From: Acidimicrobium ferrooxidans | GTDB taxonomy: Bacteria; Actinomycetota; Geothermincolia; Fen-727; Anoxymicrobiaceae | Direction of reading: 5' to 3' | NCBI GenBank assembly: GCA_020723485.1 | Contig: DYIU01000003.1 | Span: 394,347-458,346, forward strand | Length of the DNA: 64,000 nucleotides | Shown here: in pieces, positions 13,764-60,001 of the stretch | How positions within the stretch are numbered: position 1 is the first letter of the stretch | Layout: each line of letters begins with the position of its first letter | Position numbers and translations under genes: made by a program | The notes under the pieces: generated by a model | What the model saw: the letters and a program-made list of their open reading frames with translations, nothing else | Told to the model about the DNA's origin: nothing | Database searches by the model: none

Positions 13764-15596
13764 CTATCGCGCCGCCCGCAGGAACTCCCTGCAGAGGTTC
13801 ACACCTTCACGGGGATCCAGGGTCCAGGCGTCGGCCCCGACGAAGTCGCGTACGCCCTCGGTGGTCGGCCCGCCTCCTATGATAACGAACCTGCCGCCCC
13901 TGATCCCCCGCTCGCCGAGCAGCTCGACCACCTGTCTCATGGACTCGAAGGTGGGGGTGATAAGCGCCGACATTGCGACTACCGCGGCGCCGGTCTCGGC
14001 GACCTTGTCCACGATGGCTTCCGGCGGCACGTCGACCCCCAGGTCGTGGACGTTGAAACCGCTCGCCCTGAAGAGAGTCGCGGTTATGTTCTTGCCGATG
14101 TCGTGGACGTCACCCTTGGGCGTGGCGATGACCACGACCCCGCCTCCAGCCTCTCCCCCGCCCTCCATGACGAGCGGCTCGAGCCTCTCGGCCACCTCCT
14201 TGAACGCGTCGGCGGTGAGGACCAGCTCGGCCAGGAAATACTCGCCGCTGCTGTACAGCTCGCCCACCTTCTCCATCCCGGAGCGGCAGTCGTCGAGTAT
14301 CTCGAGTGGATCTCTTCCGGCGGAGATATCTCTCTGGACCATCGACATCATCTCGTCCAGTCGGAGCTCGCAAAGCGCCAGGCCGATCTCCCCTTCGAGC
14401 GCCACCTCCACGGCGTCCCGCCCGGCGGTCTCGACGCTCCGAGCGCTGGACCCGGCGGTCTTCCTGCCGCGGTAGGTCCTGCCGGTCTCGACCATTGCCC
14501 TCAGGTTCTCGGGCCTTACGTCGATCGGGCACTCGCACCCGGTGGTGAGCATGAAGCCGCCCCCGTCACCGACCTCATCGATCAGCTTCCTGCAGTAGGC
14601 CTCGACCTCATCCGGCTTCCCGAGCGAAAGCAGCGCGGCCGGCACGTCCCCGCTTATGCACATGTGCCCTTTCAGTATCTCCTTGGCGCGGAAGATGTCG
14701 GTCATGCCGTCCAGGTCGCATACGCATTTGCCCCTCGGGAGCTTCTTCAGGTAAGGCATGTTGAGCGTCCAGTCGGTGTCGAAGTGCAGCCAGGGCGTGA
14801 TGCCCTCCGAGACAAAGGCGTCAACGTAAGCCTGCAGCCACGGCCACTCGAAGCGCTCGAACGTCTCGAGGCGGTAGTAGGCCCCCGAGCCCCTCTCCAA
14901 CACCACGAAAGCCACCATCTTGCCGTTGTTCCTGCAGACCTGCACCGCGTTCGAGATGAGGTCGTCGCACGAAGCGCGCATGGCAGCCTCGACCTTGTCT
15001 GGCACCTCGAAGAGGTCGCGGGTGAACTCGGGGAGAGTCCGGCACAGGGAGAACGCCATCAGCACCGAGTCTACGGCCACCCCAAGGAAGATAGGCATCC
15101 CCTGCTCCTCGCATATCTTCGTGTCCTCGTCGTAGAACTGGTTGCTCAGGGTCTGCATCAACCTGAACTTCTCGGCGGACTTGCCGCTCATCTCCTCGTA
15201 GCGCTCGTCCCAGTATGCGTTCCACCCCAGCGCGGCTATCCTGTCGTAGTCCTCCCTCCCGAAGAGCACCCTCTCGTCTATCTGGTACAGGTCGTCCTCC
15301 CCGAGCTGCCGCCCGGGAATGAGGTTTCGCACCGGCGCCCCGCAGTGCCTGCCGGGTAGCATCGGGTAGTAGTAGTTGGGCTTGCTGCCGTAGTCGTATC
15401 CGAACTCCTTGAAGCACCAGAGGAGCGCCTCGCGGGCCGCGTCGTGGTCGCGCCACGCCTCCCCCTGGGTGATTCCGTACAGCCTCGGCCCCGCCGTGAC
15501 TAGTATCGGGAAAACCGGGTGCCGGTCTACCGGCTCGATGGCCAGGGCGGCCTCGATCCTCTCCTGGGAGGTCATGGTCTCTGTTACTCCGGCCAT
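13764..15596 (-). CDS. Fused corrinoid-dependent methyltransferase. The N-terminal domain is URO-D/MtaA-CmuA-like and the C-terminal domain is a B12-binding corrinoid domain (helical cap plus DxHxxG Rossmann).
   Basis: About 400 aa of URO-D-like domain, then LALCELRLDEMM...GEYFLAELVL (B12-binding cap) and VVIATPKGDVHDIGKNI (the DxHxxG cobalamin-binding motif). GGAAGGAG Shine-Dalgarno site. Confidence 0.7.
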   Translation of the reverse strand: MAGVTETMTSQERIEAALAIEPVDRHPVFPILVTAGPRLYGITQGEAWRDHDAAREALLWCFKEFGYDYGSKPNYYYPMLPGRHCGAPVRNLIPGRQLGEDDLYQIDERVLFGREDYDRIAALGWNAYWDERYEEMSGKSAEKFRLMQTLSNQFYDEDTKICEEQGMPIFLGVAVDSVLMAFSLCRTLPEFTRDLFEVPDKVEAAMRASCDDLISNAVQVCRNNGKMVAFVVLERGSGAYYRLETFERFEWPWLQAYVDAFVSEGITPWLHFDTDWTLNMPYLKKLPRGKCVCDLDGMTDIFRAKEILKGHMCISGDVPAALLSLGKPDEVEAYCRKLIDEVGDGGGFMLTTGCECPIDVRPENLRAMVETGRTYRGRKTAGSSARSVETAGRDAVEVALEGEIGLALCELRLDEMMSMVQRDISAGRDPLEILDDCRSGMEKVGELYSSGEYFLAELVLTADAFKEVAERLEPLVMEGGGEAGGGVVVIATPKGDVHDIGKNITATLFRASGFNVHDLGVDVPPEAIVDKVAETGAAVVAMSALITPTFESMRQVVELLGERGIRGGRFVIIGGGPTTEGVRDFVGADAWTLDPREGVNLCREFLRAAR

Positions 15597-15721
15597 GGGA
15601 GCTCCTTCCCGTGGACTTCAGGCCCAGTCAATTATATCGATGAGGGCATTATTGACATACATGTGGTGTGATGCATATTGTCGGTAGGCTCGAACGAGGA
15701 CTCTGAAGGGGGTTAGCGGCT

Positions 15722-16408
15722 TTGGTCAGACTCGATACTGATGTCGTTAAGGACATCTTCCTCGAGCTGGGTGCGGATCTCTGCGGGATCGCCCCCGCCC
15801 AGAGGTTCGGCGAGGCCCCCGAAGGCTTCAGGCCTACGGATATATTCGGTGACTGCAGAAGCGTGATCGTCTTTGCGAAACGCCTGCCCGCAGGCCCGTT
15901 GTTCGCGGCCAGCTGTATTCCGTACACCCGGTTGAACGACCTCCTGATGACTCGGCTGGACGACGTGGGCTACGCGGCTTCATTAGAGCTCGAGCGCCTG
16001 GGGGCGAAAGCCGTGGCCGTTCCGGCCGACGATCCCTCCGAATACTGGGAGGCGGACCGGCATTACGCTCGCGGTGTTCTCTCACTCCGCCATGCCGGTT
16101 ACCTGGCGGGGCTCGGCGTGCTCGGGCGCAACACGCTCCTGAAGAGCGAGCGGTTCGGGAACATGATCCAGCTCGGCGCGGCGCTCGTGGACGTGGAGCT
16201 CGAGGCCGACCCGGTGGCGTCAGGCGAGGCCTGCCCCTCCGACTGCAGCATCTGCCTGGACGCATGCCCGCAGGGAGCGCTCGACGGCAACACCGTAGAC
16301 CAGAAGCTCTGCCGCCCGCTCTCCAACTACACGAGCCCCAGGGGCTATAAGCTGTACAAGTGCTGGGAGTGCAGGAAAGCCTGCCCCGACGCGCTCGGCA
16401 CCCGGTGA
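15722..16408 (+). CDS. Fe-S protein with a QueG/reductive-dehalogenase-like N-terminal region and a C-terminal CxxxCxxCxxxCP ferredoxin motif
   Basis: N-terminus DIFLELGADLCGIAPAQRF resembles epoxyqueuosine-reductase-family proteins. Motif CPSDCSICLDACP. TTG start with a GAAGGGGG Shine-Dalgarno site. There is a TTGACA-N17 promoter-like sequence at about 15640. Confidence 0.5.
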   Translation: MVRLDTDVVKDIFLELGADLCGIAPAQRFGEAPEGFRPTDIFGDCRSVIVFAKRLPAGPLFAASCIPYTRLNDLLMTRLDDVGYAASLELERLGAKAVAVPADDPSEYWEADRHYARGVLSLRHAGYLAGLGVLGRNTLLKSERFGNMIQLGAALVDVELEADPVASGEACPSDCSICLDACPQGALDGNTVDQKLCRPLSNYTSPRGYKLYKCWECRKACPDALGTR

Positions 16409-16698
16409 AGCATCCCCCATCTGGGGTATATTCGGGTTGTCCCCGAATGCGGATTATTCCTTTTATACCGCGGAATGAGATATCCCCCGTATGGGGGTTA
16501 CGCATGCAAGCGGCGACGGTCAATAATTCATGCAACAGGTCCAGCGGCACATTCCACACCGCCCTGGGCACTGTGGGGTTCAAAATCGAAAGGGAAGCTT
16601 TGACCCGCGGGTTTAAACTGGTCACCTGGCCCGCGGCGAGCGAGTGGTGAAACCGGCCCGATCATCGAGGATCGGGTTTTTTATTGGGGGAGGAGAAC
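16409..16698 (+). promoter_or_regulatory. 290-nt structured non-coding leader ending in an intrinsic terminator (CCCGATC-atcgag-GATCGGG + T6 at 16657-16682), immediately upstream of the RBS and ATG of the SdrD-like gene. Candidate attenuator or riboswitch leader, or an sRNA.
   Basis: Multiple hairpins (ATTCGGG...CCCGAAT, CCCCCgtaTGGGGG, CCGCGGG-18nt-CCCGCGG). The terminator T-tract ends 8 nt before the GGAGG site. Confidence 0.4.
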
Positions 16699-18156
16699 AT
16701 GAGACGAGGAACCGTTTTCGCAGTAGTCGCCCTCATGGCACTCGCATTCGTCATGACAACGGCGGGCGCGCTGGTCGTAGCCGAGGACCCCGCCCCGACC
16801 GCGGTCGATACGAACGTGGGCGTCGTGCAGGCGCTCGTCACGGTCGACGGAGTCATGACCGACGGCATCAACGTCACCCTTTACAGCCTCAACGACGACG
16901 GCACCAGGAACCTCGTCGGCACCATGGCGAGCACCGGGGGGGCATACATGGTCTGGCCGTGGGGGACCTCCTACGCGCCGCCCGAGTCAGGCGGCTGGCA
17001 GAACGGCTGGGTCGGATGGAACGCCCTGCCCACCACGCACGCAGACAAGGACTATGTCGACTACGAAGTCGAGGTCGAGGTGCCCGCCGGTCTCATCTCG
17101 GTTAACGGGACCGTGCAGGGCGGGCTGGAAGTCGGGCGCCTGTGGGCCCCCAGCACTGAACACCCCTTCTGCTGGGGAAGGCAGTTCGAGTTCAAGCTCG
17201 AGAGCAGGCCCGTGGAGTACAGGCTGGACGGTTACAAGTTCAAGGACATGAACGAGAACGGCGTCATGGACGCGGACGAGGTCGGCATCCCCGGTGTCAC
17301 CATAGACCTGGACACCGACAAGGCCTCCGCCCAGACCGACGCCGGCGGTTACTTCAGTTTCACCGTTGCGGCGGGAGAACACACGGTGGCGGTCGACGAG
17401 TCGACGGCGCCCGGTTATTACCCCACCACCCCGACCTCGGTCGTCACCAGCGAGGGCAAAACGGTCTACTTCGGCAACGCGCCTTACGGCTCCATATGCG
17501 GCAAGAAGTACAACGACAAGAACAAGAACGGAAAGCCCGACTGCGGCGAGCCCACGCTGGGCGGCGTCACCATCAAGCTGAGCGGCAAGACCAACGTGGG
17601 CGGCGAAGAGGTGAACAAAGAGACGACCACGGCCACTGACGGCAGTTACTGCTTCACAGGGCTGAAGGCCGGCACGTACATCATCACCGAAGTGGTTCCC
17701 TCCGGCTGGTACGCGACCGGTCCGAACCCGAAGACCGTCACGCTTCTGCCGGGGCAGAACGTGACCGGCGTCGATTTCTTCAACGCTCAGGGCTGCGTGC
17801 CGTACGGTTCGATATACGGCAAGAAGTACAACGACAAGAACAAGAACGGAAGGCGAGACTGCTGGGAGCCCACGGTCTCCGGGGTCAAGGTCAAGCTCAG
17901 CGGAGTCATCGACGGCCAGCTCGTGAACAAGGAGACCACGACCTCGTGGGACGGGAGCTACTCGTTCACAGGGCTGAAGGCCGGCACGTACACGATAACG
18001 GAGGTCGTTCCCTCAGGCTGGCAGGCTACAGGCCTCGTGTCGGTTGAGGTGACGCTCCTTCCGGGACAGAAGGTGACCGGAGTCGATTTCTTCAACGTGA
18101 GGACTTCGACGTGCGGATGGACCCTGGACTGGTGCCTCTTCAGCTGCTGGTTTTAG
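16699..18156 (+). CDS. Secreted adhesin-like protein with tandem SdrD-B/CnaB-type repeats (DxNxNGxxD calcium-binding motif) and a Cys/Trp-rich C-terminal tail
   Basis: Signal peptide MRRGTVFAVVALMALAFVMTTAGA. Two near-identical ~100-aa repeats (GSICGKKYNDKNKNGKPDCGEPTLGGV...TEVVPSGW). Ends TCGWTLDWCLFSCWF. Confidence 0.7.
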   Translation: MRRGTVFAVVALMALAFVMTTAGALVVAEDPAPTAVDTNVGVVQALVTVDGVMTDGINVTLYSLNDDGTRNLVGTMASTGGAYMVWPWGTSYAPPESGGWQNGWVGWNALPTTHADKDYVDYEVEVEVPAGLISVNGTVQGGLEVGRLWAPSTEHPFCWGRQFEFKLESRPVEYRLDGYKFKDMNENGVMDADEVGIPGVTIDLDTDKASAQTDAGGYFSFTVAAGEHTVAVDESTAPGYYPTTPTSVVTSEGKTVYFGNAPYGSICGKKYNDKNKNGKPDCGEPTLGGVTIKLSGKTNVGGEEVNKETTTATDGSYCFTGLKAGTYIITEVVPSGWYATGPNPKTVTLLPGQNVTGVDFFNAQGCVPYGSIYGKKYNDKNKNGRRDCWEPTVSGVKVKLSGVIDGQLVNKETTTSWDGSYSFTGLKAGTYTITEVVPSGWQATGLVSVEVTLLPGQKVTGVDFFNVRTSTCGWTLDWCLFSCWF

Positions 18157-21500: not shown

Positions 21501-23087
21501 TTAGTCAAAGGGTATTCCATCCCAGACCCGGCGGTCCGCGCCGAAGGGGTCGTCCTGCTGGGCGGACACTACGTTGAAGACCATGGTCGCCCTGTCCTCG
21601 AGGTCGTAGGGCTTCCAGCCCGGGTCGCCCGAGCGGGCGAAGGACAGCCATGCGTCCTGCATGGCGTCGGAGAGCTTCCGGGGCGGGTCCTCCCCGAGGA
21701 GCGCCTCGAACCGTGTCCCCTCGAGGTTGCCGAAGACGAAGGGTAGCTCCATAGCGTGGCACGAGCCGAGCTTCGGCGCCGCCGGGCTGGACCACGTGAA
21801 CAGGTACATGTAGGTCTTCGGCTGTTTCGCCGATGCCTCCGCTACCCTGATGGCCGGCAGGCGGAACATCACGTCAGTCAGCACCGCCATTGTCACGTCA
21901 CCGTCCGTCGCCCCGGGCCTCCTTGACTTGTAGCTTGACGCGATAGCGTCCGCGGAGCCGCCGACGGCCGCCTGCACCTTCGGGATGAACGGCGCGACCA
22001 CGCTCAGGGGATACATTGCCATCGCCGGGGCCTCCGCAGCCCAGAGGCGCATCTCGTCCAGGTTGGTCCCGATGATAAGTTCGACTCCCGAAGCGCTTCC
22101 CGCCGCGATCGAGTGCAGTGGCGGCTCGAGGATGACCGAACCATCGAGGACCGGCCCGAACACCGTGGCCGACGCCGGGTTGGCCCTTATCATGTCGGAC
22201 TCGGCCTGGACGATGCGCTCAGTGTCGAGTGACAGGAGGCCCTGCAGGTCGGTCACCCCGGCATACTGCATGAGCTGCCGGGTGACGGCCGCGGCGTCCC
22301 CGGTCGAATGGATGAGGCTGAGGGCGCCGCTCTCGGCGATGGCCCGGCTGAAGAGCCCTTTGGCGGCGGGAATCGCCATCAGGGTGCATGTGCTCATGCT
22401 GCCGGCCGACTCCCCGAACACGGTGATGTTCCCGGGGTCGCCCCCGAACGCGGCGATGTTGTCGCGCACCCACTCAAGGGCGGCCACCTGGTCGAGCAGG
22501 CCGAGGTTCCCGCTCTGCGCGTACTCAGCCCCTCCCAGCTCGCCGAGATAGAGGAAGCCGAAGGCGCCGAGGCGGTAGTTGAGCGTCACAACCACCACGT
22601 CACCGCGCTTCGCGAGGCGGGCGCCGTCATACAGAGGTTCTGAACCCGCCCCGTTGGTGAACCCACCGCCGTGTATCCAGACCATGACGGGGCGGCGGCC
22701 GCCGTCCACCCCCGGGGTCCAGACGTTGAGGTTAAGGCAGTCTTCGGACTTCACCACGCCTGAGGCGCTGGCGATGTCACCTTTCGGCTGGGCCGCGGCA
22801 TCCCTGAAATCGAATGCTTTGAGCGTCCCGTCCCAGGGTTTCGGGGGCTCCGGCGGCTTGAAGCGGAGCGCATCGACCGGGGGCGCCGCGTAAGGTATCC
22901 CCTTGAAGACAACGACGCCGTTGGCCGCGACTTTGCCTTCGACCCTCCCCTGCGCCGTGACGGCCGTCGTTCCTATACCACAGCCGGCGGAGAACAGTAT
23001 GAGAGCTGAACACAGAGCAGCAATCAGAACGGCGGCGAGTGCGACCCTCGCACGCCCGCCCGGGAAGCTCGTCGGTATCCCGGCCAT
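21501..23087 (-). CDS. Carboxylesterase type B (para-nitrobenzyl-esterase-like) lipoprotein
   Basis: GESAGS nucleophile elbow, HGGGF oxyanion motif, and lipobox FSAGCG. The true start is the ATG at 23087; the 190-codon upstream extension in the ORF track overlaps the rubrerythrin gene. Confidence 0.85.
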   Translation of the reverse strand: MAGIPTSFPGGRARVALAAVLIAALCSALILFSAGCGIGTTAVTAQGRVEGKVAANGVVVFKGIPYAAPPVDALRFKPPEPPKPWDGTLKAFDFRDAAAQPKGDIASASGVVKSEDCLNLNVWTPGVDGGRRPVMVWIHGGGFTNGAGSEPLYDGARLAKRGDVVVVTLNYRLGAFGFLYLGELGGAEYAQSGNLGLLDQVAALEWVRDNIAAFGGDPGNITVFGESAGSMSTCTLMAIPAAKGLFSRAIAESGALSLIHSTGDAAAVTRQLMQYAGVTDLQGLLSLDTERIVQAESDMIRANPASATVFGPVLDGSVILEPPLHSIAAGSASGVELIIGTNLDEMRLWAAEAPAMAMYPLSVVAPFIPKVQAAVGGSADAIASSYKSRRPGATDGDVTMAVLTDVMFRLPAIRVAEASAKQPKTYMYLFTWSSPAAPKLGSCHAMELPFVFGNLEGTRFEALLGEDPPRKLSDAMQDAWLSFARSGDPGWKPYDLEDRATMVFNVVSAQQDDPFGADRRVWDGIPFD

Positions 23088-23119
23088 GGGCAGCTGTGTG
23101 TCGGTCAACCTGGGAATCC

Positions 23120-23677
23120 TCAGGCCTTCCCCTCGAGCTTTGTCAGCTTGTCCTCGTCGAGCTGTATGTGGTCGGCCTCTATCATCGAGAGGGCCGCGAA
23201 CACCTCTTTCACCCTGGGGTCCGTCGCCTCGGCGGCGGAAGCCGCGTAGAACTTCGTGGCGTTGTTCTCGCGCTTGAGCGACTCCCTGACGTTCTCGATG
23301 TAGGCGTCGTGGCACTCCTCGGTGTGCTCCTTGTCGGGCTTGGGCTGGCCGAGCATCTTGAGGATGGTCGACGCGTGCTCGTTCTCGACCTTCGAGAGCG
23401 CCTTGAAGGTGGCGAACCCCTCGAAATCGCCCGCCTCGTCCCCCTTGGCCGATGAGCAGCGGTAGAACGCGGTGTTGGACTGCTCGATGGCAAGAGCCTT
23501 CTCGAGGTTGCCCCTGTCCGTGTCGTTGAGGGTTCCGACCTTCGGGTCGTCCCAGTCGCTCGCGAGGATTATGTACTCCGCGTGTGCCCCGCAGAACGGG
23601 CAGTGCGAGGGTGGCACCGCCCCTATGTAAGGGTCTCCGCAAATCCTGCATCTCCATACGCGCACCTTCATATCCAT
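23120..23677 (-). CDS. Rubrerythrin-family protein with an N-terminal rubredoxin-like zinc/iron ribbon (reverse-rubrerythrin arrangement)
   Basis: CRICGD...CPFCG, then a ferritin-like ExxH four-helix region. Confidence 0.8.
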   Translation of the reverse strand: MDMKVRVWRCRICGDPYIGAVPPSHCPFCGAHAEYIILASDWDDPKVGTLNDTDRGNLEKALAIEQSNTAFYRCSSAKGDEAGDFEGFATFKALSKVENEHASTILKMLGQPKPDKEHTEECHDAYIENVRESLKRENNATKFYAASAAEATDPRVKEVFAALSMIEADHIQLDEDKLTKLEGKA

Positions 23678-33315: not shown

Positions 33316-36240
33316 TCACCTCCTTCCCGGCGATGCGCTTTCGCGCGCCGCCGTTCCCGCTTGCCCTGTGGTTCCAACGCCGGCTTGACGGTTGCCTGTG
33401 ATCAATTCGTCCCTGCCCTGGCCCACGGTCGTCACCTGCCCGCTCCCTGCGGAGCCGAGCGCGGCGGCGCCGTCCGCAACGGTGTTTCCGATCGAACTCG
33501 CTGCCCGGGGCTCCGGGCTCCTGCCCATGGTCCCGTCGTCCTTCATCGCCGAGCTGATCTGCGCGAACCAGACGAAGAGGAGGGCGAAGACGACCACCAT
33601 GACCACCGGTGCGATCCTGGACACCCAGTTCGTCCTCCCCGGCTTGAAGCGCCTCAGAAGCAGCGAGTTCGAGACGACGGAGATCGAGCTGAGCACCATG
33701 GCCAGGCCCGCCAGTTCCGGCCTCAGCGCGATGCCCAGGGCGGCGAACACGCCCGCCGCGATGGGGATTCCCATAACGTTGTAGAAGAGGGCGAAGAACA
33801 TGTTCTGACGGACCTTGCCGAACGTCTCCTTCGAAAGCTGCTTCGCGGTGACGACGTCCCTCAGGTCGTCTTTGATTATCACGATGCCGCCGGTCTCCAT
33901 CGCCACGTCCGTGCCTGAGCCCATCGCCACCCCGAGGTCGGCCTGGGCGAGCGCGGGCGCGTCGTTGATGCCGTCACCCACCATCGCGACCCTCTCTCCA
34001 CTCGCCTGCAGCTTCTTCACCTCGCTCGCCTTGTCCTCAGGCAGGACCTCGGCCAGGACGTTCCCGATTCCCAGTTCGCCGGCGATCGCCCCGGCGGTGC
34101 GCCGGTTGTCCCCGGTGATCATGTAGATATCGAGGCCCATGTCCTCTAGCTCCGAGATCGCCTCGCGGGACGTATCCTTGACGGTGTCGGCGACCGCCAC
34201 GGCCCCCAGCACCTTCTCGCTCGAGGAGAGTATCATCACGGTTTTTCCCTGCTCTTCGAGCCCCGAAACCGTTGAGTCGATCCCTTCCAGCTCCAGGCCG
34301 ACGACCTCGGTGGCGAGCTTCCGGTTGCCGAAGAAATAACGGCTTCCTTCCACCTGGCCCTGCACCCCCAGGCCGGGGACCGCCCTGAAATCCGAGACGT
34401 CGCGGACCGGGATCGAACGGCCGAGCGCGTGGCCGTATACCGCCTCGGCCAGCGGGTGCTCGGAGGATTTTTCCAGGGATGCCGATATGCGCAGGACGTC
34501 ACTCTCGCTGAACCCGTTGAACGTCAGGACATCCGTCACCTCGGGCTCGCCGTTGGTCAGCGTACCGGTCTTGTCGAAGACGATGGACGTCACCTTCTCA
34601 GCCGACTCCAGCGGCTCGCCTCCCTTGACGAGTATGCCGTACTCCGCGCCCTTGCCGGTGCCGACCATTATGGCGGTGGGGGTGGCAAGTCCCAGAGCGC
34701 ACGGGCAGGCGATGACGATAACGGCGGTGAACGCCATCAGCGAGTAGGTCAGGGACGCGCTGAGGAATACGAACCAGACGGTGAAGGTCAACGCGGCGAT
34801 TGCCAGGACCGCGGGCACGAAGTACTTCGATACCCTGTCCGCGAAGCCCTGGATCGGCGCCTTGGAGCCCTGTGCGTCCTCGATGAGGCGGATTATCTGG
34901 GCGAGCATGGTCTCGGAGCCGACGCGGGTCGCCTCGAACTCGAAGCTCCCGGTCTTGTTGATGGTGACGCCGATCACCGTGTCGCCCACGTTCTTCTCGA
35001 CGGGGATGCTCTCGCCCGTGACCATCGACTCGTCCACAGCCGAGGAACCCCGGGTGATGACTCCGTCGACCGGGACCTTCTCCCCGGGACGGACCAGGAT
35101 GATGTCGCCGTGGACGACGTCCTCCACCGGTATGTCATCGGTGACGCCGTCCCTTATGACGCGCGCCGTCTTCGCCTGCAGGCCCATGAGCTTTTTGATG
35201 GCCTCGGACGTCTTGCCCTTCGCCCGCGCCTCCAGCCACTTGCCGAGCAGCACGAAAGTGATCAGGAACGCCGCCGTCTCGAAGTACATGTTGGGGACCT
35301 TGGCGCCGTCCATGCCGATCAGGGTCGAGTTTGACACGGCGTAGGATATGTATACCGCCAGGCTGTAGAAGTAGGCCGTCGATGTCCCGATCGCGATGAG
35401 GCTGTCCATGTTGAAGGTCCTCATGCGCAGGCTCGACCACGCGCCCTTGTAGAACCCCGCGCCCGCGATGAACTGCACGGGGGTGGCCAGTATGAGGGAG
35501 ACGATTGCGAAGTACGGGGGCAGGGACCCGGCGCCCGGCAGCCATTTGAAGAAATCGAGGAGCATGAAATAGAGCATGGGAAGGCTCAATACCAGGCTGA
35601 ACAGGAACCTGTTCCTGTAGCTCCTGATCTCCCTCTCTCGCCTGTCCGACTCCTGCTCGCTCTCCCTCTCGCCGACGACCGCCGCCCTGTAACCGGCCTT
35701 CCTGACCGCCTCGACGAGGTCTTCAGGCGATACCGTCACGGGATCGTAGTCCACGTACGCCTTCTCGGCGGCGAAGTTCACCGAGGCCTGCCTCACGCCC
35801 TGAGTCTTGTTGAGCGCACGTTCGATGACGGCAGCGCACGAGGTGCAGTGCATCCCTGAGAGTGAAAGCCCGACCCTGCCCGCGGAGCTCCCGGCCTCCA
35901 TGCCGCCGGTTTCCCCGCGGTGGCCGCCGCTCCCCTCCCCGGTCGAATCATGTTCGCCGGGGCCGGGGAGCGGTACGCCGGTGTCGGCTTCGGGGGCGCC
36001 GGGGCCTGCGCCCTCATCGCTGTCGTCGATGAGCTCCGCCCGGTAACCCTCGGCTTCTATCAGGTTGAGGACCATCTGCACCGGGATGATGTCGACCTCC
36101 GCCACAACGGTGCCAGTACCGCTCTCGTAATCGAACTCGGCCGTGCGTACACCGTCCGCGCAAAGGAGGGCATCCTCGATGAGCCGCGCGCAGGAGTTGC
36201 AGTGCATGTCTTCCACCTTGAGCCTGAGTACTCTCTCCAT
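33316..36240 (-). CDS. copA: Copper-translocating P1B-type ATPase with two N-terminal HMA domains
   Basis: MHCNSCA and MHCTSCA metal-binding sites. CPC in TM6. [21 protein letters not shown] Shine-Dalgarno site. Confidence 0.9.
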
Positions 36241-36362
36241 AACAGCCTCCCGGGTTCTTATACCTATACCTATGGTAGGGGTACCAGACAGGAAAGTCAA
36301 GTGTTTTGGTAGGTTATTTCACCGGGAATATTGAACGCTCTGGAGGCCCTGTCTGTGCGGCT

Positions 36363-37886
36363 CTACCCGCAGCACCCGCCCCGGGCCGGGGCGGGGGTTT
36401 CATCCTTCTTGAGGTCGGTCTTGCCCGGTTTTGCAGGGTCCACTACGTCCATGTAACCGGCGACCATCCCCATCCAGCAGCTGAACCGGTACCGCCCCGG
36501 TTCATCGACCTTGAACTCCTTGACGCTGGTTTTGCCGGGGGTCAGGGCGATCTCGCCGCTGAAGAGGTCCTGTGCGATGATGGCGTTGGTGCAGCCGCTC
36601 GTCCCGGTATCCTCTATCTCCCACTTCACCGGGACTCCCGCACGCACAGTCAGGTGGTCAGGACTGTAACCAGACGACGAAGCCTCCATCTCGAGGACCT
36701 GCTTGCCGTCAACGATCTCAGGGAGCTTCACATCGGCCTTCGCCGCGGTCGGTGCCTTGCCAGGGCTGAAGAGGTCCCCGAGGTTCGGCGCGTCCAGCAC
36801 GACCAGCTGATTGTTGATGTTGAACAGCGCGAAGAACAGCACCAGGACTCCTGCGACCTTCAGGAAGGTCGCGGCCAGCCTCGGCTTCTCGAGGAACTTC
36901 ACGCTGGAAAAGCCTATCACCAGCAGCATCGGCAGGGTCCCGAGAGCGAAAGCAAGCATTATGAGAGAGCCCTGGAGCGGATTCCCCGACAGCAGGGCGA
37001 AGCTCTGCGCGGTTATGGTGAACCCACACGGAACAAAGAACGTCAGGGCGCCCATCGCGAGCGGCATGTACCTTCCCTTGAAGTGAGTCTCGTCGGCCAC
37101 GTAACGGGTGACGGACTTCGGCATTGTGAACTGGAACCGGCGAAAGGACTGCACCCCCAGCATCTGGAGACCAAGTACGATCATCACAATCGAGATGGCT
37201 ATTACCATTAGTGCGGAAAACGACGGCGTCAGCCTCAATGTCCCCCCGATGCCGGCAAGCAGCGCCCCGAGCAGGGCAAACGAGACCAGCCGGCCCGCGT
37301 TGAACAGGAGGTGCGGCTCCAGCCTCTTTTTCAACGGATCATCAGGGGAGTAAAGCTCGCCCCACTGCTTGGACATCGACAGGACTATCCCGCCGACGAG
37401 CGCCGCGCAGCTCGAGAAGCCCGCGACCAGGCCGAGCAGGAGGAACACCGGGAGCGAGGACCCGCTGTCCACTTTAACAAGCCCGGTCACCCCCGCCCTC
37501 TGGAGCAGTATGACGAGAGCGACGGCCGAGACGGCCACTCCAGCTACCTTCCCTGCGTCCTTCAGCCGCGAGGAGCCGCCGGCAGCCTTCGGGCTGAGTG
37601 AGAACCTGTACCCCTCCTTCTCGAAAAGCCTGTTCAGGTCTTCAACCTTAGGCGGGCGGCCCTCGTACTCGACTGTGACGGTCTCCCTCGAGACCGACGC
37701 CTCGACCGAGTGGAGCCCGTCGAGCCCTATCAGCTTCTTCTCGATGATGACCTCGCAGGCGGGGCAGTGCATGCCCTCGACGTAGAAGTCTCGCTCGAGA
37801 GCGCCGCCCCTCCCGCGCGCCACATTCGTGGCCTTCGCCCTGTTCGTCCGCTTGTTCTTCTTTCCTGACTTGCCTCGCCTGGCCAT
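36363..37886 (-). CDS. HMA-domain membrane protein: an N-terminal MxCxxC metallochaperone domain fused to a DsbD_2/TauE-like polytopic permease and a C-terminal soluble beta-rich domain ending ...GGCCG
   Basis: GMHCPACE. 8-9 TM helices. The C-terminal approximately 120 residues are hydrophilic with terminal Cys-Cys. Confidence 0.6.
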   Translation of the reverse strand: MARRGKSGKKNKRTNRAKATNVARGRGGALERDFYVEGMHCPACEVIIEKKLIGLDGLHSVEASVSRETVTVEYEGRPPKVEDLNRLFEKEGYRFSLSPKAAGGSSRLKDAGKVAGVAVSAVALVILLQRAGVTGLVKVDSGSSLPVFLLLGLVAGFSSCAALVGGIVLSMSKQWGELYSPDDPLKKRLEPHLLFNAGRLVSFALLGALLAGIGGTLRLTPSFSALMVIAISIVMIVLGLQMLGVQSFRRFQFTMPKSVTRYVADETHFKGRYMPLAMGALTFFVPCGFTITAQSFALLSGNPLQGSLIMLAFALGTLPMLLVIGFSSVKFLEKPRLAATFLKVAGVLVLFFALFNINNQLVVLDAPNLGDLFSPGKAPTAAKADVKLPEIVDGKQVLEMEASSSGYSPDHLTVRAGVPVKWEIEDTGTSGCTNAIIAQDLFSGEIALTPGKTSVKEFKVDEPGRYRFSCWMGMVAGYMDVVDPAKPGKTDLKKDETPAPARGGCCG

Positions 37887-37941
37887 CCCTGATCGCTCCC
37901 TCTGTAGGCCGGGTACCCGGCGCCCCGCAGGTCCAGCCCGC

Positions 37942-38214
37942 CTACTTGTTCGACAGCTTGGTCACCTGGAGTATCTCCTGGATCATCTCCTGCTTGCGCT
38001 TGTCGCTCGCCGACGACATCGCCTTCTTGAAGCAGTCGTTCAGGTGCCCTTCCATCAGCATCTGGTTCGCTGACTTGAGAAGGCCGATTACGGCGAGGTC
38101 CTGCTGCATTATGTCGACGCAGTACTCGTCGTTCTCTATCATCTTGATGATCTTCCCGAGAAGGCTCTGCGCTTTCTTGAAGTTGATGAGGGTCTTTTCC
38201 TTCTGGACGTTCAA
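37942..38214 (-). CDS. csoR: CsoR/RcnR-family metal-sensing transcriptional repressor
   Basis: 90-aa protein with conserved Cys and His positions (...DEYCVD...GHLNDC). First gene of the copper operon. Confidence 0.75.
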   Translation of the reverse strand: MNVQKEKTLINFKKAQSLLGKIIKMIENDEYCVDIMQQDLAVIGLLKSANQMLMEGHLNDCFKKAMSSASDKRKQEMIQEILQVTKLSNK

Positions 38215-47819: not shown

Positions 47820-48542
47820 GTGCAGGCATTCAGTGACAAATGGATACGTTACTTCGAGAGGCCCGGGCCGGCCAATACGCGGGATACCCTCGAATGCTGC
47901 AGGCGGAGAGCCGTCGAGCTGGGCCTCCGAACCGTTGTGATTGCGAGCCTCAGGGGGGAGAGCGCGCTGCTCGCTCTCGAGGTGCTCGCGGGGACGGGGT
48001 TCGAGGTCGTAGCGGTAACCATCCCTCCCGGCGCATTCTGGACCGTGGGCTCTATGCACAACGACATCTGGGACGACATCCCCGAGCTGAGGGCGCAGAG
48101 GGAGGCGTGGGAGAGCGAAGGCCTCGGGCGGGTGCGGATGGACATGGACGAGGATACGGAGGCCCGTCTGACCGCCATGGGGGTGAAGGTGGTCCGGGGT
48201 ACGATACCGTTCTACGCCATTGGGACCTCGCTCGCCGCCCGCTTCGGGGGCTTGAACTTCGAGCAGTACTTCACCGAGGCCCTGCGGCTGTTCTCGGGTG
48301 GTACGATAGTGTGCGTCGAGGCCGCGCTGATGGCCGCGGATGCCGGCGCGGTCTCCATTGAAGACGAGGTGGTCGCGGCCGCCGGCACTTCGATGGGGCT
48401 CGACACCGCAATGGTCGTCAGGCCCTCGACCAGCCTGACCTTCCTCGAGCCCGGCTCCGGCCTCGAGATTCGGGAAGTCGTAGCGATGCCGCGTGCAAAA
48501 CCGAAATACTCTCCCGGGGGAATGGGAGAGGAATACCGATAG
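47820..48542 (+). CDS. Hypothetical protein, possibly with a pyruvate-kinase C-terminal-like (alpha/beta) domain
   Basis: GTG start with a GGAGGG Shine-Dalgarno site. 240 aa. Only a weak family resemblance. Confidence 0.4.
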   Translation: MQAFSDKWIRYFERPGPANTRDTLECCRRRAVELGLRTVVIASLRGESALLALEVLAGTGFEVVAVTIPPGAFWTVGSMHNDIWDDIPELRAQREAWESEGLGRVRMDMDEDTEARLTAMGVKVVRGTIPFYAIGTSLAARFGGLNFEQYFTEALRLFSGGTIVCVEAALMAADAGAVSIEDEVVAAAGTSMGLDTAMVVRPSTSLTFLEPGSGLEIREVVAMPRAKPKYSPGGMGEEYR

Positions 48543-48571
48543 CCCAGCTGAGGCAGAGGGCGAATGGAACG

Positions 48572-49093
48572 ATGCTGATAAACACGGAAAGCGTGGAGAT
48601 AACGTGCTCGCAGGACCACCCCGGCGACGAGGACTGGCTGGCGAAGGCGCGCGTGCCTGAGGACCTAACTCCAATCATGCCGTACGTCAACGCAGTCGTG
48701 AAGCGCACTGACTACTACACCGACGTGCCGGCGATAATCTGGATGCACGGAGACCGCAGAGTCGCGGTGCGTCCTCACGAGATAGCCGTGAGCCACGTCG
48801 GCGATACTGAGGAGGCCGCGGTCGAGGTCCGCAAGGTCGTCGACTGGCTCAACGACCTCTGGGAACGGCGGGACGCAGTGACCCCCATGGCGGAGCCGAA
48901 GTCCCTGCCTCCGCTTATGAGCGTCCTGAGGCTTCTGCCGATGAACAACTGCGGGGAATGCGCCCTGCCTACGTGCACCGCTTTCGCGGTCAACCTCATC
49001 GAGGGCGACAGGCGCATCGAGGACTGCCCGGCGCTCACGTCGGAAGAGGGCCGGGAGAGAGCGCGGGCGCTCGAGGACATGGGCCTCACCTGA
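48572..49093 (+). CDS. Protein with a C-terminal four-Cys FeS domain like the N-terminus of the corrinoid iron-sulfur protein large subunit (CGECxxPTCxxFA...C)
   Basis: Motif LLPMNNCGECALPTCTAFAVNLIEGDRRIEDCPAL. Confidence 0.5.
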   Translation: MLINTESVEITCSQDHPGDEDWLAKARVPEDLTPIMPYVNAVVKRTDYYTDVPAIIWMHGDRRVAVRPHEIAVSHVGDTEEAAVEVRKVVDWLNDLWERRDAVTPMAEPKSLPPLMSVLRLLPMNNCGECALPTCTAFAVNLIEGDRRIEDCPALTSEEGRERARALEDMGLT

Positions 49094-49114
49094 GAGGCCC
49101 GGGAAAGGACCGAA

Positions 49115-49783
49115 ATGACCGGACTGAACGAACGGCGCTTCTTCTGCTCCTGGAGCGGAGGCAAGGATGCTTGCCTCGCGCTCTACCGCGCGGTGCAGGC
49201 TGGCGGGAAGCCGGCCGCGCTCCTCACGACGCTGAACGAGGACGGCCTGAGCTCGCGAGGCCATGGCATAGAGCCGGGCTTGTTGCGGGCCCAGGCTGAG
49301 AGCCTCGGGATCGAGCTGGTCACCAGGCCCACGAGCTGGGAAGGCTACCGGGAAGAGTTCCTGGCCGCTGCGCGGACGCTGGCCGGCGGAGGGGTCGGGA
49401 TCGGCGTTTTCGGAGATATAGACCTCCAGGTGCACCGTGACTGGATCGAAGACGTCACGTCCGACGCGGGGGTGGAGCCGTTCTTCCCGCTGTGGAAGTG
49501 CGAACGCTCCGAGCTGGTCGGCCAGTTCATCGATGCAGGTTTCAAGGCCACCGTCATCTCTGTGAAGGAAGAGGTGCTGCCGGCCGGGCTCCTGGGGGAG
49601 GAGCTCACCGCCGAGACGCTCGCTGCGATAGAGAAAGCGGGGGCGGACCTCTGCGGTGAGGACGGCGAGTACCATACCATTGTGACCGACGGACCTCTGT
49701 TCATGACGCCGCTCGAGCTGGTGACCGGCGGCACGTCCGAGCGCGACGGCTACACGGTACTCGATATCCGGGGCAAGGCATGA
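49115..49783 (+). CDS. PP-loop ATP pyrophosphatase of the Dph6/MJ0570-like (diphthine-ammonia ligase-like) family
   Basis: CSWSGGKDA PP-loop at the N-terminus. 222 aa. Confidence 0.7.
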   Translation: MTGLNERRFFCSWSGGKDACLALYRAVQAGGKPAALLTTLNEDGLSSRGHGIEPGLLRAQAESLGIELVTRPTSWEGYREEFLAAARTLAGGGVGIGVFGDIDLQVHRDWIEDVTSDAGVEPFFPLWKCERSELVGQFIDAGFKATVISVKEEVLPAGLLGEELTAETLAAIEKAGADLCGEDGEYHTIVTDGPLFMTPLELVTGGTSERDGYTVLDIRGKA

Positions 49784-53264: not shown

Positions 53265-54125
53265 TTAAAGGAATGCATTCCACGGGGCGCCTCCCGAGCC
53301 CCTGACGGACTGCTGGTGATTTTCTCGTTCGCGTGGCCTATGCGTGGCTTCAGACATCTCACTGACGAGACGGGAGAGGGGCTCGAGGCTGCCATCCGTT
53401 TCGGCGACAGCTTTCATGAGGGCACTGCCGACGATGACGCCGTCGGCCATCGCCGCGGCCTCGCGGCACTGCTCCGGCGTCGAGATGCCGACCCCCACCG
53501 CGATGGGGCATGAGGCATGCTCGCGGACGCGGGCCAGGAACCCGGGCAGCCCGGGCGGCAGCGATTCTCGCGCGCCCGTGGTGCCGAGCTGCGAGACGCA
53601 GTAGAGGAACCCTGTGGTCGCCGCGGCCGCCGCCCCGAGCCTCTGGGGGCTCGTCGTCGGCGCGCAGAACGCGACGGTCGCGAGCCCCGCGGAATCACAG
53701 GCCGCCTTGAGGGGGCCCATCTCTTCGACCGGCAGGTCCGGGACCACGAGCCCGTCGGCGCCCGCCGAATGGGCGCGGTGGGCAAAGCGCTCGAGCCCGT
53801 AGCGGAAGACCGGGTTGTAGTAGGTCATGATAAGGAGGGGGCGCGCGGTCCCGCCCCGGACCTCACGGAGGAGGTCCAGTACCGAATCGACCGTCGCGCC
53901 GGCCGAGAGCGCCGCGACGCTTGTCTTCTGTATCACCGGGCCGTCCATCACCGGGTCAGAGAACGGCACGCCTATCTCGACGGCGTCCGCTCCCGCCGCG
54001 AGCATTGCACGGACCACCTCCGCGCTCCGCTTCCGGTCGGGGTAGCATCCCGTGGCGTACGTTATGAGTGCGGCCCCTGACGGTGCGGCCACCTGGAACA
54101 TCTCCCTCAGTGCTTCTGCGCTCAC
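53265..54125 (-). CDS. trpA: Tryptophan synthase alpha subunit
   Basis: Family-typical sequence. Last gene of the operon. 4-nt overlap with trpB. Confidence 0.9.
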
Positions 54126-55300
54126 ATGTGCTCCTTCATGGTCTCAAGGTCTTTGTCCCCCCGTCCGGAGAGGCAGACGACAATTGACTGCCCAGGGCGC
54201 ATCCCCGGCGCGGCGCGCATGGCGTAGGCCACTGCATGGGCGCTCTCGAGTGCCGGCAGGATGCCCTCAGTCCTCGCGAGGAAGCGCGCCGCCTCGAGAG
54301 CTTCGCCGTCGCTCGCGCTCGTGTAGGTCGCAAGCCCTTCCTCCTTCATGCGGGCGTGCTCAGGCCCGACACCCGGGTAGTCGAGGCCGGCCGAGACCGA
54401 GTGGGTATCCGCCACCTGTCCATCGCCGTCCTGCAGCAGGTAGCTCATGGCGCCGTGCAGGACGCCGACCTCGCCCAGGCCCAGTGTCGCGCCGTGCTCG
54501 CCGGGCGCCGCGCCCCGACCCCCTGCCTCCACCCCCATGAGCAAGGGGCCCTCCCCGACGAACGGCGCGAACATCCCCATGGCGTTGCTGCCGCCCCCGA
54601 CGCAGGCCACAAGCACGTCCGGCATCTTCCCCTCGGCCGCCAGGAACTGTTCGAGCATCTCCGTCCCTATCACTGACTGGAACTCGGCAACCATCCCCGG
54701 GAACGGGTGGGGCCCGACCACCGAGCCGATGCAGTAGTGGGTCCCGGACACGTTCTCGACCCAGTCGCGCAGGGCCTCGTTTATCGCGTCTTTCAGTGTG
54801 CGGGAGCCGCTCCCGACCGGCCTGACCTCCGCGCCAAGGAGCTCCATCCTGGAGACGTTGGGCGCCTGGCGCTCTATGTCGACCTCCCCCATGTAGACCA
54901 CGCACTCCTGGGAGAAGAGCGCGGCGGCGGTCGCGCAGGCGACGCCGTGCTGCCCGGCGCCCGTTTCCGCTATCACCCTGGGCTTACCCATCCGGCGCGC
55001 GAGCAGGCACTGCCCCAGGGTGTTGTTGAGCTTGTGCGAGCCGGTGTGGCAGAGGTCCTCCCGCTTGAGGTAGACCGTCGCGCCGCCAAGAAGGCGGGTC
55101 ATGTTGTCCGCCCTGTAGAGGGGGGTTGGACGGCCGGCGTACTCGCGCCTCAGGCGAGAGGACTCCGCTGTGAAAGCCCCGTCCCGCTTCGCCTCGAGGA
55201 ACGCCTCCTCGAGCTCGAGCAGCGCCGCCATCAGCGGTTCGGGAACGAACCTGCCTCCGAACCTGCCGTAGTATCCTTTCTTTGCGTCGATCATCTGCAT
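54122..55300 (-). CDS. trpB: Tryptophan synthase beta subunit
   Basis: [12 protein letters not shown]-Lys motif. GGGSNAMG. Confidence 0.9.
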
Positions 55301-55914
55301 GCCTCCATGCCGGCGTTCCTCGCCTCTTCCACGAACCTCCGCATGAGCGCGTGGTCCTTCTTCCGGGGAGCGCGCTCCACCCCGCTTGCGACGTCCACCC
55401 CGAACGGCTGCGCGAGCCTGACCGCTTCAGCGACGTTCTCCGGGGCCAGGCCTCCAGCGATGAGTGTGCGCCTCGCGGCCGCGAATGGCCTGGCGGCTCT
55501 CCAGTCAAAACCGTCTCCGGGCCCGGCCCGCCGCCCGGTCTTGGGGGCTTCCAGCAAGACGAGGGAACACCCATGGCCCGTCACGGCGCCGACCGCGGGT
55601 ACGTCCTCAAGCCTGACGGTCCTTATCACCATCCCGCCGAGCGCCGAGCAGTACTCCGGGCTCTCGCTGCCGTGGAGCTGGACCATGTCCAGCCCGCAGC
55701 GCTCGACCACATCGAGTACATCCTCTAGCGGGCTGTCGGCGAACACGCCCACCTTCGTCACCCCGCGGGGCACTGACCCGGCGATGCGGCGCGCGCACTC
55801 CGGCGTCACCCTCCTCGGGCTCTCCGCGAAGATGAAACCGACCGCGTCCGCCCCCAGCTCAGCAGCGCAAAGGGCGTCCTCGAGCCTGGTGATGCCGCAG
55901 ATCTTCACCCACAT
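55291..55914 (-). CDS. trpF: Phosphoribosylanthranilate isomerase
   Basis: MWVKICGIT...GADAVGFIF. Confidence 0.85.
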
Positions 55915-59955: not shown

Positions 59956-60001
59956 ACTTCCTCCAAATAGCAAGACCGTGGCTTTGAGTGCCACGGTCGG
60001 T

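Follow-up and report, generated by a model that had tools for sequence, protein, structure and literature searches.

A putative methyltransferase I fused to its own corrinoid carrier in a Geothermincolia-type actinobacterium, and the metagenomic family to which it belongs

Introduction

What does a polypeptide do that joins a barrel of the uroporphyrinogen decarboxylase (URO-D) fold to a complete cobalamin (B12) module, and with which partners does it work? The question is raised by a 610-residue open reading frame (ORF) on a 64,000-nucleotide stretch of contig DYIU01000003.1 (positions 394,347 to 458,346), which we call the window. A first-pass annotation had described the product as an MtaA-like methyltransferase fused to a corrinoid protein (CP), and had proposed that it works together with two Fe–S proteins encoded in the same window. 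Every feature named there was found in its place, with E-values far beyond chance, and the accompanying view that the substrate is not readable from the sequence still holds. Our comparisons indicate that the fused protein is probably a metal-dependent fusion of a methyltransferase I (MT-I) and its CP, with the architecture of CmuA and a His-on corrinoid, from a clade that has no characterised member.

Results

Gene and domain architecture

The gene and its domains occupy the following window positions.

13764..15596, minus strand: putative fused MT-I/corrinoid protein gene, ORF of 610 aa with an ATG start
15602..15609, minus strand: Shine–Dalgarno sequence GGAAGGAG, 5 nt before the ATG of the fused gene, as read from the sequence
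14466..15596, minus strand: N-terminal URO-D-fold TIM-barrel methyltransferase domain, residues ~1–377 (Pfam URO-D, PDB, profile and Foldseek)
14397..14465, minus strand: flexible interdomain linker, residues ~378–400, poorly conserved in a 20-sequence alignment and of low predicted local distance difference test (pLDDT) score
14181..14381, minus strand: four-helix B12 cap, residues 406–472 (Pfam B12-binding_2, PF02607, 40.2 bits; predicted helices 402–478)
13854..14138, minus strand: Rossmann-type B12-binding domain, residues 487–581 (Pfam B12-binding, PF02310, 79.5 bits)
14094..14111, minus strand: DxHxxG motif D496-V-H498-D-I-G501, invariant in the 20-sequence homologue alignment

The GC content at third codon positions is 0.88, typical of real genes, in a window of 64% GC, and an independent Logan assembly carries an identical 610-residue protein with the same neighbours. 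The Pfam URO-D model (PF01208) scores 69.5 bits (cutoff 23.9) over residues 181–375, and the match covers model positions 150–346 only, which is the C-terminal half of the model. The AlphaFold2 model of the fused protein is of medium quality, with an overall pLDDT of 72; linker residues 378–397 fall below 50 and are disordered in it. Foldseek matched UroD barrels to this model with target-normalised TM-scores of ~0.6. The Pfam domains and the invariant ligand motifs described below bear out the earlier description of a URO-D-family methyltransferase and a complete B12 module in one 610-residue protein.

The corrinoid half matches 4JGI in the PDB with an E-value of 1e-38, and also 1Y80 and MttC (7XCN). 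Foldseek gives a TM-score of 0.75 against 4JGI, with MtaC also among the structural likenesses. Three motifs are invariant in the 20 aligned homologues, namely D496/H498/G501 (DxHxxG), S543-x-L545 (SxL) and G574-G575-G576 (GGG). With the cap, the Rossmann domain and all of these motifs, the fused protein is, by its sequence features, a methyltransferase-cognate corrinoid protein. By curated cutoffs it nevertheless falls outside all four named subfamilies, as the corrinoid half scores 143.5 bits with pyl_corrinoid (TIGR02370, cutoff 215.3), 142 with MtgC (310), 138.5 with MtbC (350) and 108 with MtaC (450). His498 is the predicted lower axial ligand of cobalt, and since this residue is kept in the corrinoid domain, base-off/His-on binding is predicted, as in MetH, 4JGI, 1Y80, MttC and MtaC.

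Placement of the catalytic domain

A PDB search with residues 1–379 returned a sole significant match, CdmB (9RUI; E = 2e-17), at 25% identity over residues 185–369, and significant alignment is limited to the C-terminal half of the barrel. MtaA was absent from the PDB matches of these residues even at E ≤ 10. CdmB is an experimentally characterised chloromethane:corrinoid MT-I of Acetobacterium that works with a CP, a methyltransferase II (MT-II) and an activating enzyme, and within the UroD superfamily it is counted among the O-demethylase MT-I enzymes (PMC13222342), to which MtvB, OdmB, VdmB and MtoB belong.

When the family profile was run against reference proteins, a URO-D protein of Sporomusa termitida scored 224 bits, a half-length fragment of CdmB 70, CmuA 68, MtaA-like neighbour proteins 25–50, UroD (4EXQ) 5.5 and MtaA (4AY7) 4.0. 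Curated models of the methyltransferase group also stay far from their cutoffs on the fused protein: TIGR01463 (MtaA/CmuA family) reaches 50.7 bits (cutoff 235.4), PRK06252 reaches 41 (244) and the MtbA model 30 (600). There is a clear ordering in these scores, by which the catalytic domain is a URO-D of the methyltransferase type and stands closer to MT-I enzymes than it does to either MtaA or UroD. The label 'MtaA-like' is inexact: the methyltransferase-type URO-D assignment stands, and the likeness to MtaA itself, at 4 bits and with TIGR01463 well under its cutoff, does not.

The Pfam family name URO-D and the UroD barrels found by Foldseek would also suit a true uroporphyrinogen decarboxylase of haem synthesis with an accessory B12 domain. 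The scores refute this reading, to which we give practically no credence: the hemE model (TIGR01464) has no match to the fused protein at E ≤ 0.01, UroD 4EXQ reaches only E = 0.32 against the catalytic domain (phmmer) besides its 5.5 bits, and the barrel is fused to a complete corrinoid module of the methyltransferase type. Clustering with UroD proper and a loss of B12 ligand residues were the two outcomes on which the first-pass annotation would have been given up; the domain is not UroD proper, and the ligand residues are intact.

Active-site residues

Two elements of the barrel fall in the columns of the metal ligands of MtaA.

14778..14786, minus strand: His271-Phe-Asp273, in the columns of the MtaA H-x-C zinc ligands (alignment with MtaA 4AY7, CmuA and MtaA-like proteins)
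14535..14537, minus strand: Cys354 (in TGCEC), in the column of the third MtaA zinc ligand (same alignment)

In this multiple alignment, LHICG...PGCG of MtaA and THTC...PGCD of CmuA line up with His271-Phe-Asp273 and Cys354, while CdmB and UroD have none of the three residues. The methylcobamide:coenzyme M methyltransferases MtaA, MtbA and MtsA share the URO-D fold and the barrel positions of the metal site, although the ligands are His/Cys/Cys in MtaA and His/Asp/Cys here. The fused protein thus departs from the MtaA-type site H-x-C...C, keeping two of the three ligands and replacing one Cys by Asp. Over 121 sequences of the wider clade (30–100% identity), His271 is conserved in 97%, Asp273 in 94% and Cys354 in 93%, and other residues are also conserved (Asp68, Arg186 and Asp194 in 100%, Asp296 in 95%, Arg235 in 90%). 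The conserved residues follow the barrel strands predicted in the AlphaFold2 model (267–271, 290–293, 228–232 and 349–351); His271-Phe-Asp273 lies at the C-terminal end of strand 267–271, and Cys354 comes after strand 349–351. The C-terminal strand ends are the canonical catalytic face of a TIM barrel. We infer that His271, Asp273 and Cys354 form a metal site, probably for zinc, which would polarise the heteroatom that bears the methyl group. Positions 73/74, 107, 176/177, 234 and 294 are variable over the clade and invariant inside the family of the fused protein (described below), which is consistent with one defined substrate.

The conserved triad sits where MtaA holds its thiol-activating zinc, and this is one of the observations that would suit a folate-independent thiol or thioether methyltransferase, either an enzyme like MtsA/MtsB of Methanosarcina, in which one URO-D domain does both half-reactions and would carry the methyl of a methylthio compound, by way of the tethered cobamide, over to a thiol, or a methylcobamide:thiol MT-II. 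MtsA performs both half-reactions. We consider such an enzyme unlikely here: the profile score of MtaA is negligible, the MtaA, MtbA and CmuA models are far below their cutoffs, and no candidate thiol cofactor pathway was seen. The gene neighbourhoods, to which we return below, bear on it from both sides.

Comparison with CmuA and CdmB

CmuA of Methylorubrum extorquens CM4 (plasmid pCMU01) is a proven fusion of MT-I and CP, with 617 residues in the same order of MT-I, cap and Rossmann domain. It aligns colinearly over residues 1–608 of the 610 at an identity of 23%, and the CmuA-type fusion architecture proposed at first pass is thereby confirmed. The Methanosarcina Mts fusions carry the corrinoid domain first, in the opposite order to the fused protein, and we do not retain the likeness to fused Mts proteins that had also been suggested. 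MtsD, MtsF and MtsH of Methanosarcina are corrinoid and methyltransferase domain fusions, according to a title cited in PMC10418091.

CmuA and the fused protein differ in several residues. The Cys of CmuA PGCD aligns with Cys354, but H-T-C of CmuA is H-F-D in our family, and CmuA has GNTQDIG, with Gln, where the fused protein has GDVHDIG, with His498. The setting also differs, since CmuA belongs to an aerobic methylotroph and its gene lies beside other cmu and folate-related genes. In Acetobacterium, the CdmB/CdmC/CdmA system is likewise built on an MT-I that works with a corrinoid protein, a pterin MT-II and an activating enzyme (PMC13222342), and those relatives of our protein that have separate genes for the two halves are organised alike. 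CdmB itself is a separate protein of 429 residues, zinc-free and with a hydrophobic channel system (PMC13222342).

Domain order, near-equal length and full-length colinearity with CmuA, together with CdmB as the best solved relative, would be expected of a halomethane dehalogenase of the CmuA/CdmB type, which would pass the methyl group of chloromethane or bromomethane to Co(I) and then to tetrahydrofolate. We nevertheless hold this function to be improbable. Identity is low to CmuA and, over residues 185–369, to CdmB; CmuA has Gln at the position of His498; CdmB contains no metal, its cavity is aromatic and hydrophobic (PMC13222342), and the His/Asp/Cys triad is missing from it, whereas the conserved active-site face of the fused protein is rich in Asp, Glu and Arg. 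Moreover, the coenzyme A (CoA) ligases, organic-acid importers, AbfD and crotonase found beside family members would be needless for a gaseous one-carbon (C1) substrate.

Distribution of the family and its host

The searched metagenome database yielded 734 homologues of the fused protein. The best 120 of these are all 600–620 residues long, have the same three domains and are 67–84% identical, and their source labels are metagenome-assembled genomes (MAGs) of Thermodesulfobacteriota, Chloroflexota, Actinomycetota and Pseudomonadota. Public names of the homologues are confined to 'cobalamin-dependent protein', 'methylmalonyl-CoA mutase cobalamin-binding domain' and 'MtbC1'. A scan of one genome per GTDB species gave 75 loci, every one of them in a MAG and several genomes having two copies; most belong to Desulfobacterales, and the others include Geothermincola/Solincola, Syntrophomonadaceae, Spirochaetota, Planctomycetota and Leptospirales. 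The fused form (~610 aa) was found at 38 loci, 65–74% identical to the window protein. At 35 loci the form is split, with a URO-D gene of ~380 aa followed directly by a corrinoid gene of ~215 aa, 52–63% identical to the window protein.

When the catalytic domain was searched exhaustively with HMMER, 1999 representatives passed E ≤ 1e-3 and 206 passed E ≤ 1e-30; the fused and split forms together make up one 50%-identity cluster. The next relatives outside this family are at most 47% identical (at most 43% for full-length ones) and almost all unfused, with ~370–390 residues, so the fusion is a derived feature of one subclade. The closest relative found in a cultured organism is WP_246105655.1 of Sporomusa termitida ('uroporphyrinogen decarboxylase family protein'), 29% identical over residues 11–378, which keeps the H-x-D...C triad; it is unfused, 365 residues long and uncharacterised. 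Its gene (L080, 7974–9071) lies on the 131-kb plasmid pSPTER between genes for flavin adenine dinucleotide (FAD)-dependent oxidoreductases and major facilitator superfamily (MFS) transporters.

No published description of the fused/split family was found in the literature searched. Three described groups were considered and rejected as its identity: the mlp/SCMT-like clusters, whose proteins share over 25% identity with MtaA-type enzymes (PMC10418091); the steroid methyltransferases AbeA/EmtA, which are MtmB-like and of ~50 kDa (PMC11912376); and the core methionine synthases MesA–D, which are MetE-like (PMC7857596). The family is widespread in anaerobic bacteria, is seen only in metagenomes and has no characterised member.

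By its TrpB, the host of the window is an uncultured Geothermincolia-type actinobacterium. The named relatives of this TrpB are Actinomycetota only (Ca. Geothermincolia 75%, Ca. Anoxymicrobium 74%, Ca. Solincola 69%), in agreement with the earlier statement that the host is no methanogen. For Ca. Solincola genomes the Wood–Ljungdahl pathway, including acsE, has been reported (PMC12917137). The fused protein is 70–72% identical to its Desulfobacterales homologues, and TrpB is 69–75% identical within the host's own class. An identity across phyla that comes close to that of TrpB within a class suggests either lateral transfer or an unusually strong constraint on the fused protein.

Gene neighbourhoods across the family

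We counted the genes that recur beside the fused form (n = 38 loci) and the split form (n = 35 loci).

AMP-forming CoA ligase: fused 13 (within 10 kb; 7 within two genes), split 11
DUF362 + Fer4 protein: fused 4 (all Actinomycetota), split 0
Crotonase: fused 3, split 9
CobW: fused 2, split 6
Pterin-binding MT-II (methyltetrahydrofolate:corrinoid methyltransferase): fused 1 (locus L022, directly upstream of the fused gene), split 6
RACo activator: fused 0, split 6
MtaA-like URO-D: fused 1, split 11
AbfD: fused 1, split 11
Liv-type ATP-binding cassette (ABC) components: fused 3, split 12
Receiver-like 174-aa protein: fused 0, split 13

The identities of these neighbours were checked by their scores. 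The MT-II scores 294 bits with NF005719, above the cutoff of 259; the activator has RACo_C_ter at 237 bits together with Fer2; the AbfD reaches 568 bits to 1U8V, a 4-hydroxybutyryl-CoA dehydratase; and the CoA ligase has AMP-binding at 211 bits. Split-form loci also hold an acyl-CoA dehydrogenase with electron-transfer flavoprotein (ETF), and this dehydrogenase is nearest to the acryloyl-CoA reductase AcrC (395 bits, below the cutoff).

Several arrangements recur. In MAGs of Desulfobacteraceae (L064, L069, L073, L055 and L059), AbfD and the 174-aa receiver-like protein precede and often also follow the split genes, and the adjoining divergent operon comprises a Liv-type ABC importer and an AMP-CoA ligase. 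At three other split loci (L043, L057 and L062) a crotonase takes the place of AbfD. The order in Syntrophomonadaceae (L033 and L034) is sigma-54 activator, fused gene, ligase. Around the gene of a homologue of 80% identity (P0005) are two HGD-D genes and genes for an HpaB/AbfD-family protein, Amidohydro_2 and a 3-hydroxyacyl-CoA dehydrogenase.

Taken together, the CoA ligases, Liv importers, AbfD or crotonase, MT-II, RACo and CobW point to a tetrahydrofolate-linked demethylase that acts on a methylated organic acid. The pattern indicates a putative route of acid import, CoA activation, corrinoid-dependent demethylation and elimination of a heteroatom at the 3- or 4-position of the CoA ester, with the methyl group going to tetrahydrofolate. 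The substrate could not be read from the individual neighbours: for the CoA ligase the closest matches are fatty-acyl-, feruloyl- and 4-coumarate-CoA ligases, to which its likeness is only generic, the crotonase is nearest to mycobacterial EchA5, whose role is unknown, and the solute-binding protein matches the unassigned Liv-type protein 4RU0.

The same neighbourhoods can be held up to the folate-independent thiol or thioether methyltransferase. An MT-II is adjacent in only 1/38 fused loci and is lacking in the window, and the AcrC-like dehydrogenase, ETF, crotonase and CoA ligase of the split loci could process a mercapto-acyl-CoA. Genes for a pterin-binding MT-II and for RACo do, however, adjoin family members, which speaks for the tetrahydrofolate-linked demethylase.

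Fe–S proteins of the window

The two Fe–S proteins of the first-pass proposal are the following.

15722..16408, plus strand: short protein related to QueG and reductive dehalogenases (RDases), 228 aa, with two [4Fe-4S] motifs; divergent from the fused gene, 125-bp spacer
48572..49093, plus strand: FeS-domain protein, 173 aa (Pfam PF04060 'FeS', 42.6 bits, 32-residue domain only)

The neighbour scores 42.4 bits with the QueG model TIGR00276 (cutoff 200), over model positions 138–242 of 337 only, and 22.2 bits with the RDH model TIGR02486 (cutoff 160.35). By these model scores it belongs to neither QueG nor the reductive dehalogenases. The neighbour has two ferredoxin-type cluster motifs, and the stretch ahead of these aligns to QueG (5D6S and 5D08) and PceA (8Q4H), the match being confined to residues 118–222; the matched chains are 399–503 residues long and the neighbour has 228. 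A relationship to the QueG/RDase superfamily can therefore be upheld, and membership of either family cannot. Its own family consists of stand-alone proteins of ~228 aa (1147 hits, in bacteria and Thermoplasmata archaea, roughly 60% identical), whose likeness to QueG is likewise only 42 bits on the model and confined to the cluster-binding segment, and the automatic name 'epoxyqueuosine reductase' that it carries is probably a misannotation.

Might the fused methyltransferase, this neighbour and the distant FeS protein form one unit that maintains or reactivates the corrinoid? The divergent pair with its 125-bp spacer would suit such a unit, as would the finding that four further Actinomycetota loci have a different two-cluster protein (DUF362 + Fer4) close to the fused gene. 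Yet the QueG-like gene was found by tblastn in 0/75 related loci, and three sampled contexts of its homologues in unrelated genomes contained no URO-D/B12 corrinoid methyltransferase. Known corrinoid activators are RACo or RamA ATPases, and it is RACo that accompanies split family members. The FeS protein lies 33 kb off, between PK_C-like and diphthamide-synthase-like genes. We regard the composite as highly improbable; the place of the QueG-like gene beside the fused gene is probably a coincidence, and the functional link that had been drawn between the two is unsupported. In one of the sampled contexts, a gene of 603–611 aa ~6 kb from the QueG-like homologue was considered as a possible fused methyltransferase and rejected, as its start, MDDRWGKNMFKRTIVLLII, marks a membrane-type protein.

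The 48572..49093 protein had been described as having a CFeSP-type FeS domain. In it we found the FeS domain but no TIM-barrel or B12-binding domain, so CFeSP membership is not upheld. It belongs to a different three-gene cluster (47820–49783, plus strand) of a PK_C-like protein of 240 aa, the PF04060 protein of 173 aa and a Diphthami_syn_2 (ATP-binding) protein of 222 aa, with gaps of 22–30 bp, which is unconnected with the corrinoid gene.

The DUF362 proteins of the four Actinomycetota loci (L004, L023, L044 and L078) have two [4Fe-4S] clusters and ~366–443 residues. Their gene is directly downstream of the fused gene on the opposite strand in three of the loci and ~3 kb off in L078, with an AMP-CoA ligase a few genes beyond; in the window, a different Fe–S protein holds the adjacent position.

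Remainder of the window

The genes that flank the fused gene encode an S-adenosylmethionine (SAM) methyltransferase, a lipoprotein, a solute-binding protein, a transglutaminase-core protein, the QueG-like protein, a surface protein, a phosphoesterase and a carboxylesterase, and they give no functional context. An Rfam search at the gathering threshold found no B12 riboswitch or other RNA near the fused gene; the sole match, unrelated to it, was a c-di-GMP-II riboswitch (RF01786; 16584–16667, plus strand; 61 bits, E = 4e-11), which lies between the QueG-like gene and the next gene. It is directly upstream of the gene for a 490-aa SdrD_B/SpaA/CarboxypepD_reg surface protein (16684–18156), an arrangement which suggests that this Geothermincolia-type actinobacterium regulates a cell-surface protein through cyclic di-GMP. 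The carboxylesterase-family protein (718 aa; 21501–23657, minus strand), 6 kb from the fused gene, has COesterase at 366 bits and a weak match to BD-FAE (feruloyl/acetyl-xylan esterase). It might hint at the use of plant-derived esters; no link to the fused gene was shown. Farther away are an apparent tryptophan-biosynthesis operon (53265–59994, minus strand), recognised from ORF size and order and with only trpB confirmed, and two heavy-metal P-type ATPase-like genes accompanied by a small CsoR-like gene (33316–38214, minus strand). Genes of this kind are routine housekeeping content, and they help to place the host among free-living bacteria.

Discussion

Proposed mechanism

We favour, with moderate confidence, the interpretation that the 610-residue protein combines, in one chain, the MT-I of a corrinoid-dependent demethylase with the corrinoid carrier that serves it; the enzyme would use an MT-II in trans for transfer to tetrahydrofolate and a RACo for repair, and would act on a methylated organic acid. 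Among the observations for it are the catalytic half that is nearest to MT-I enzymes, the colinearity with CmuA, and the MT-II and RACo genes at split loci. The data show the architecture of the protein, its ligand motifs, its nearest relatives and the neighbourhoods of the family, from which we infer the binding of a metal, the direction of methyl transfer, which proteins serve as MT-II and activator in this genome, and the class of substrate.

In the proposed mechanism, the URO-D-fold barrel would bind a methylated small molecule, and the methyl-bearing O or S atom would be polarised by a probable metal site of His271, Asp273 and Cys354. The Co(I) cobamide, held base-off/His-on by His498 under the four-helix cap, would then attack the methyl group. 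Next, the linker of ~25 residues would swing the methyl-Co(III) domain to a separately encoded pterin-binding MT-II, which would make methyl-tetrahydrofolate for the Wood–Ljungdahl pathway or the C1 pool. Finally, a RACo-type ATP-dependent activator encoded elsewhere would repair cobamide oxidised to Co(II). A methylated organic acid is the likeliest substrate. It could be an ether, for instance a methoxy-aromatic acid, or a thioether, for instance methylthiopropionate or methylthiobutyrate; once demethylated, it would be processed further as its CoA ester.

Several points weigh against this interpretation. First, URO-D-type MT-I and MT-II enzymes are homologous, and the direction of transfer is therefore not fixed by similarity alone. 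Second, the profile placement used a small reference set in which three references were rebuilt from HMMER alignment fragments, and the putative metal site is read from an alignment beside a structure model of mediocre quality. Third, the operon evidence comes mostly from the split clade, whose members are 52–63% identical to the window protein. The linkage of the fused clade to MT-II (1/38) and RACo (0/38) is weak; genes in the related loci were called by a crude longest-ORF heuristic and many contigs are short, so that the counts of absent neighbours are lower bounds. Finally, when every member of 13 neighbour families was searched against the 64-kb window by tblastn (E ≤ 1e-3), only the fused gene itself matched. 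No MT-II was found in the window, nor any activator of the RACo or RamA type, nor a CoA ligase, AbfD or importer from the associated families, and the demethylase system is incomplete as seen there.

Meaning for the family

A further step, which we offer tentatively and with rather low confidence, is that the family represents a demethylase that has so far gone unrecognised. It would act on a methylated acid, short-chain or aromatic, and be linked with CoA activation and with heteroatom elimination of the AbfD or crotonase type. Candidate reactions would be the anaerobic demethylation of methylthio acids in sulfate reducers, a process to which no genes have been assigned, with methylmercaptopropionate (MMPA), dimethylsulfoniopropionate (DMSP) or methionine-derived compounds as substrates, or a new class of O-demethylase. 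Its distribution over uncultured Desulfobacterales, Geothermincolia, Chloroflexota and others suggests lateral spread.

For the window itself, the gene is real and of interest as a member of this family, while the cluster with Fe–S genes that had been proposed around it does not hold. The Sporomusa termitida relative could give experimental access to the wider clade. Which methylated compounds (lignin methoxyls, methyl-sulfur compounds, methyl halides) enter anoxic C1 metabolism is decided by corrinoid-dependent demethylases. If the substrate were identified, the family would add a His-on, probably metal-dependent counterpart to CmuA, and a reaction of the carbon or sulfur cycle would be assigned to abundant uncultured sulfate reducers and to actinobacteria possessing the Wood–Ljungdahl pathway.

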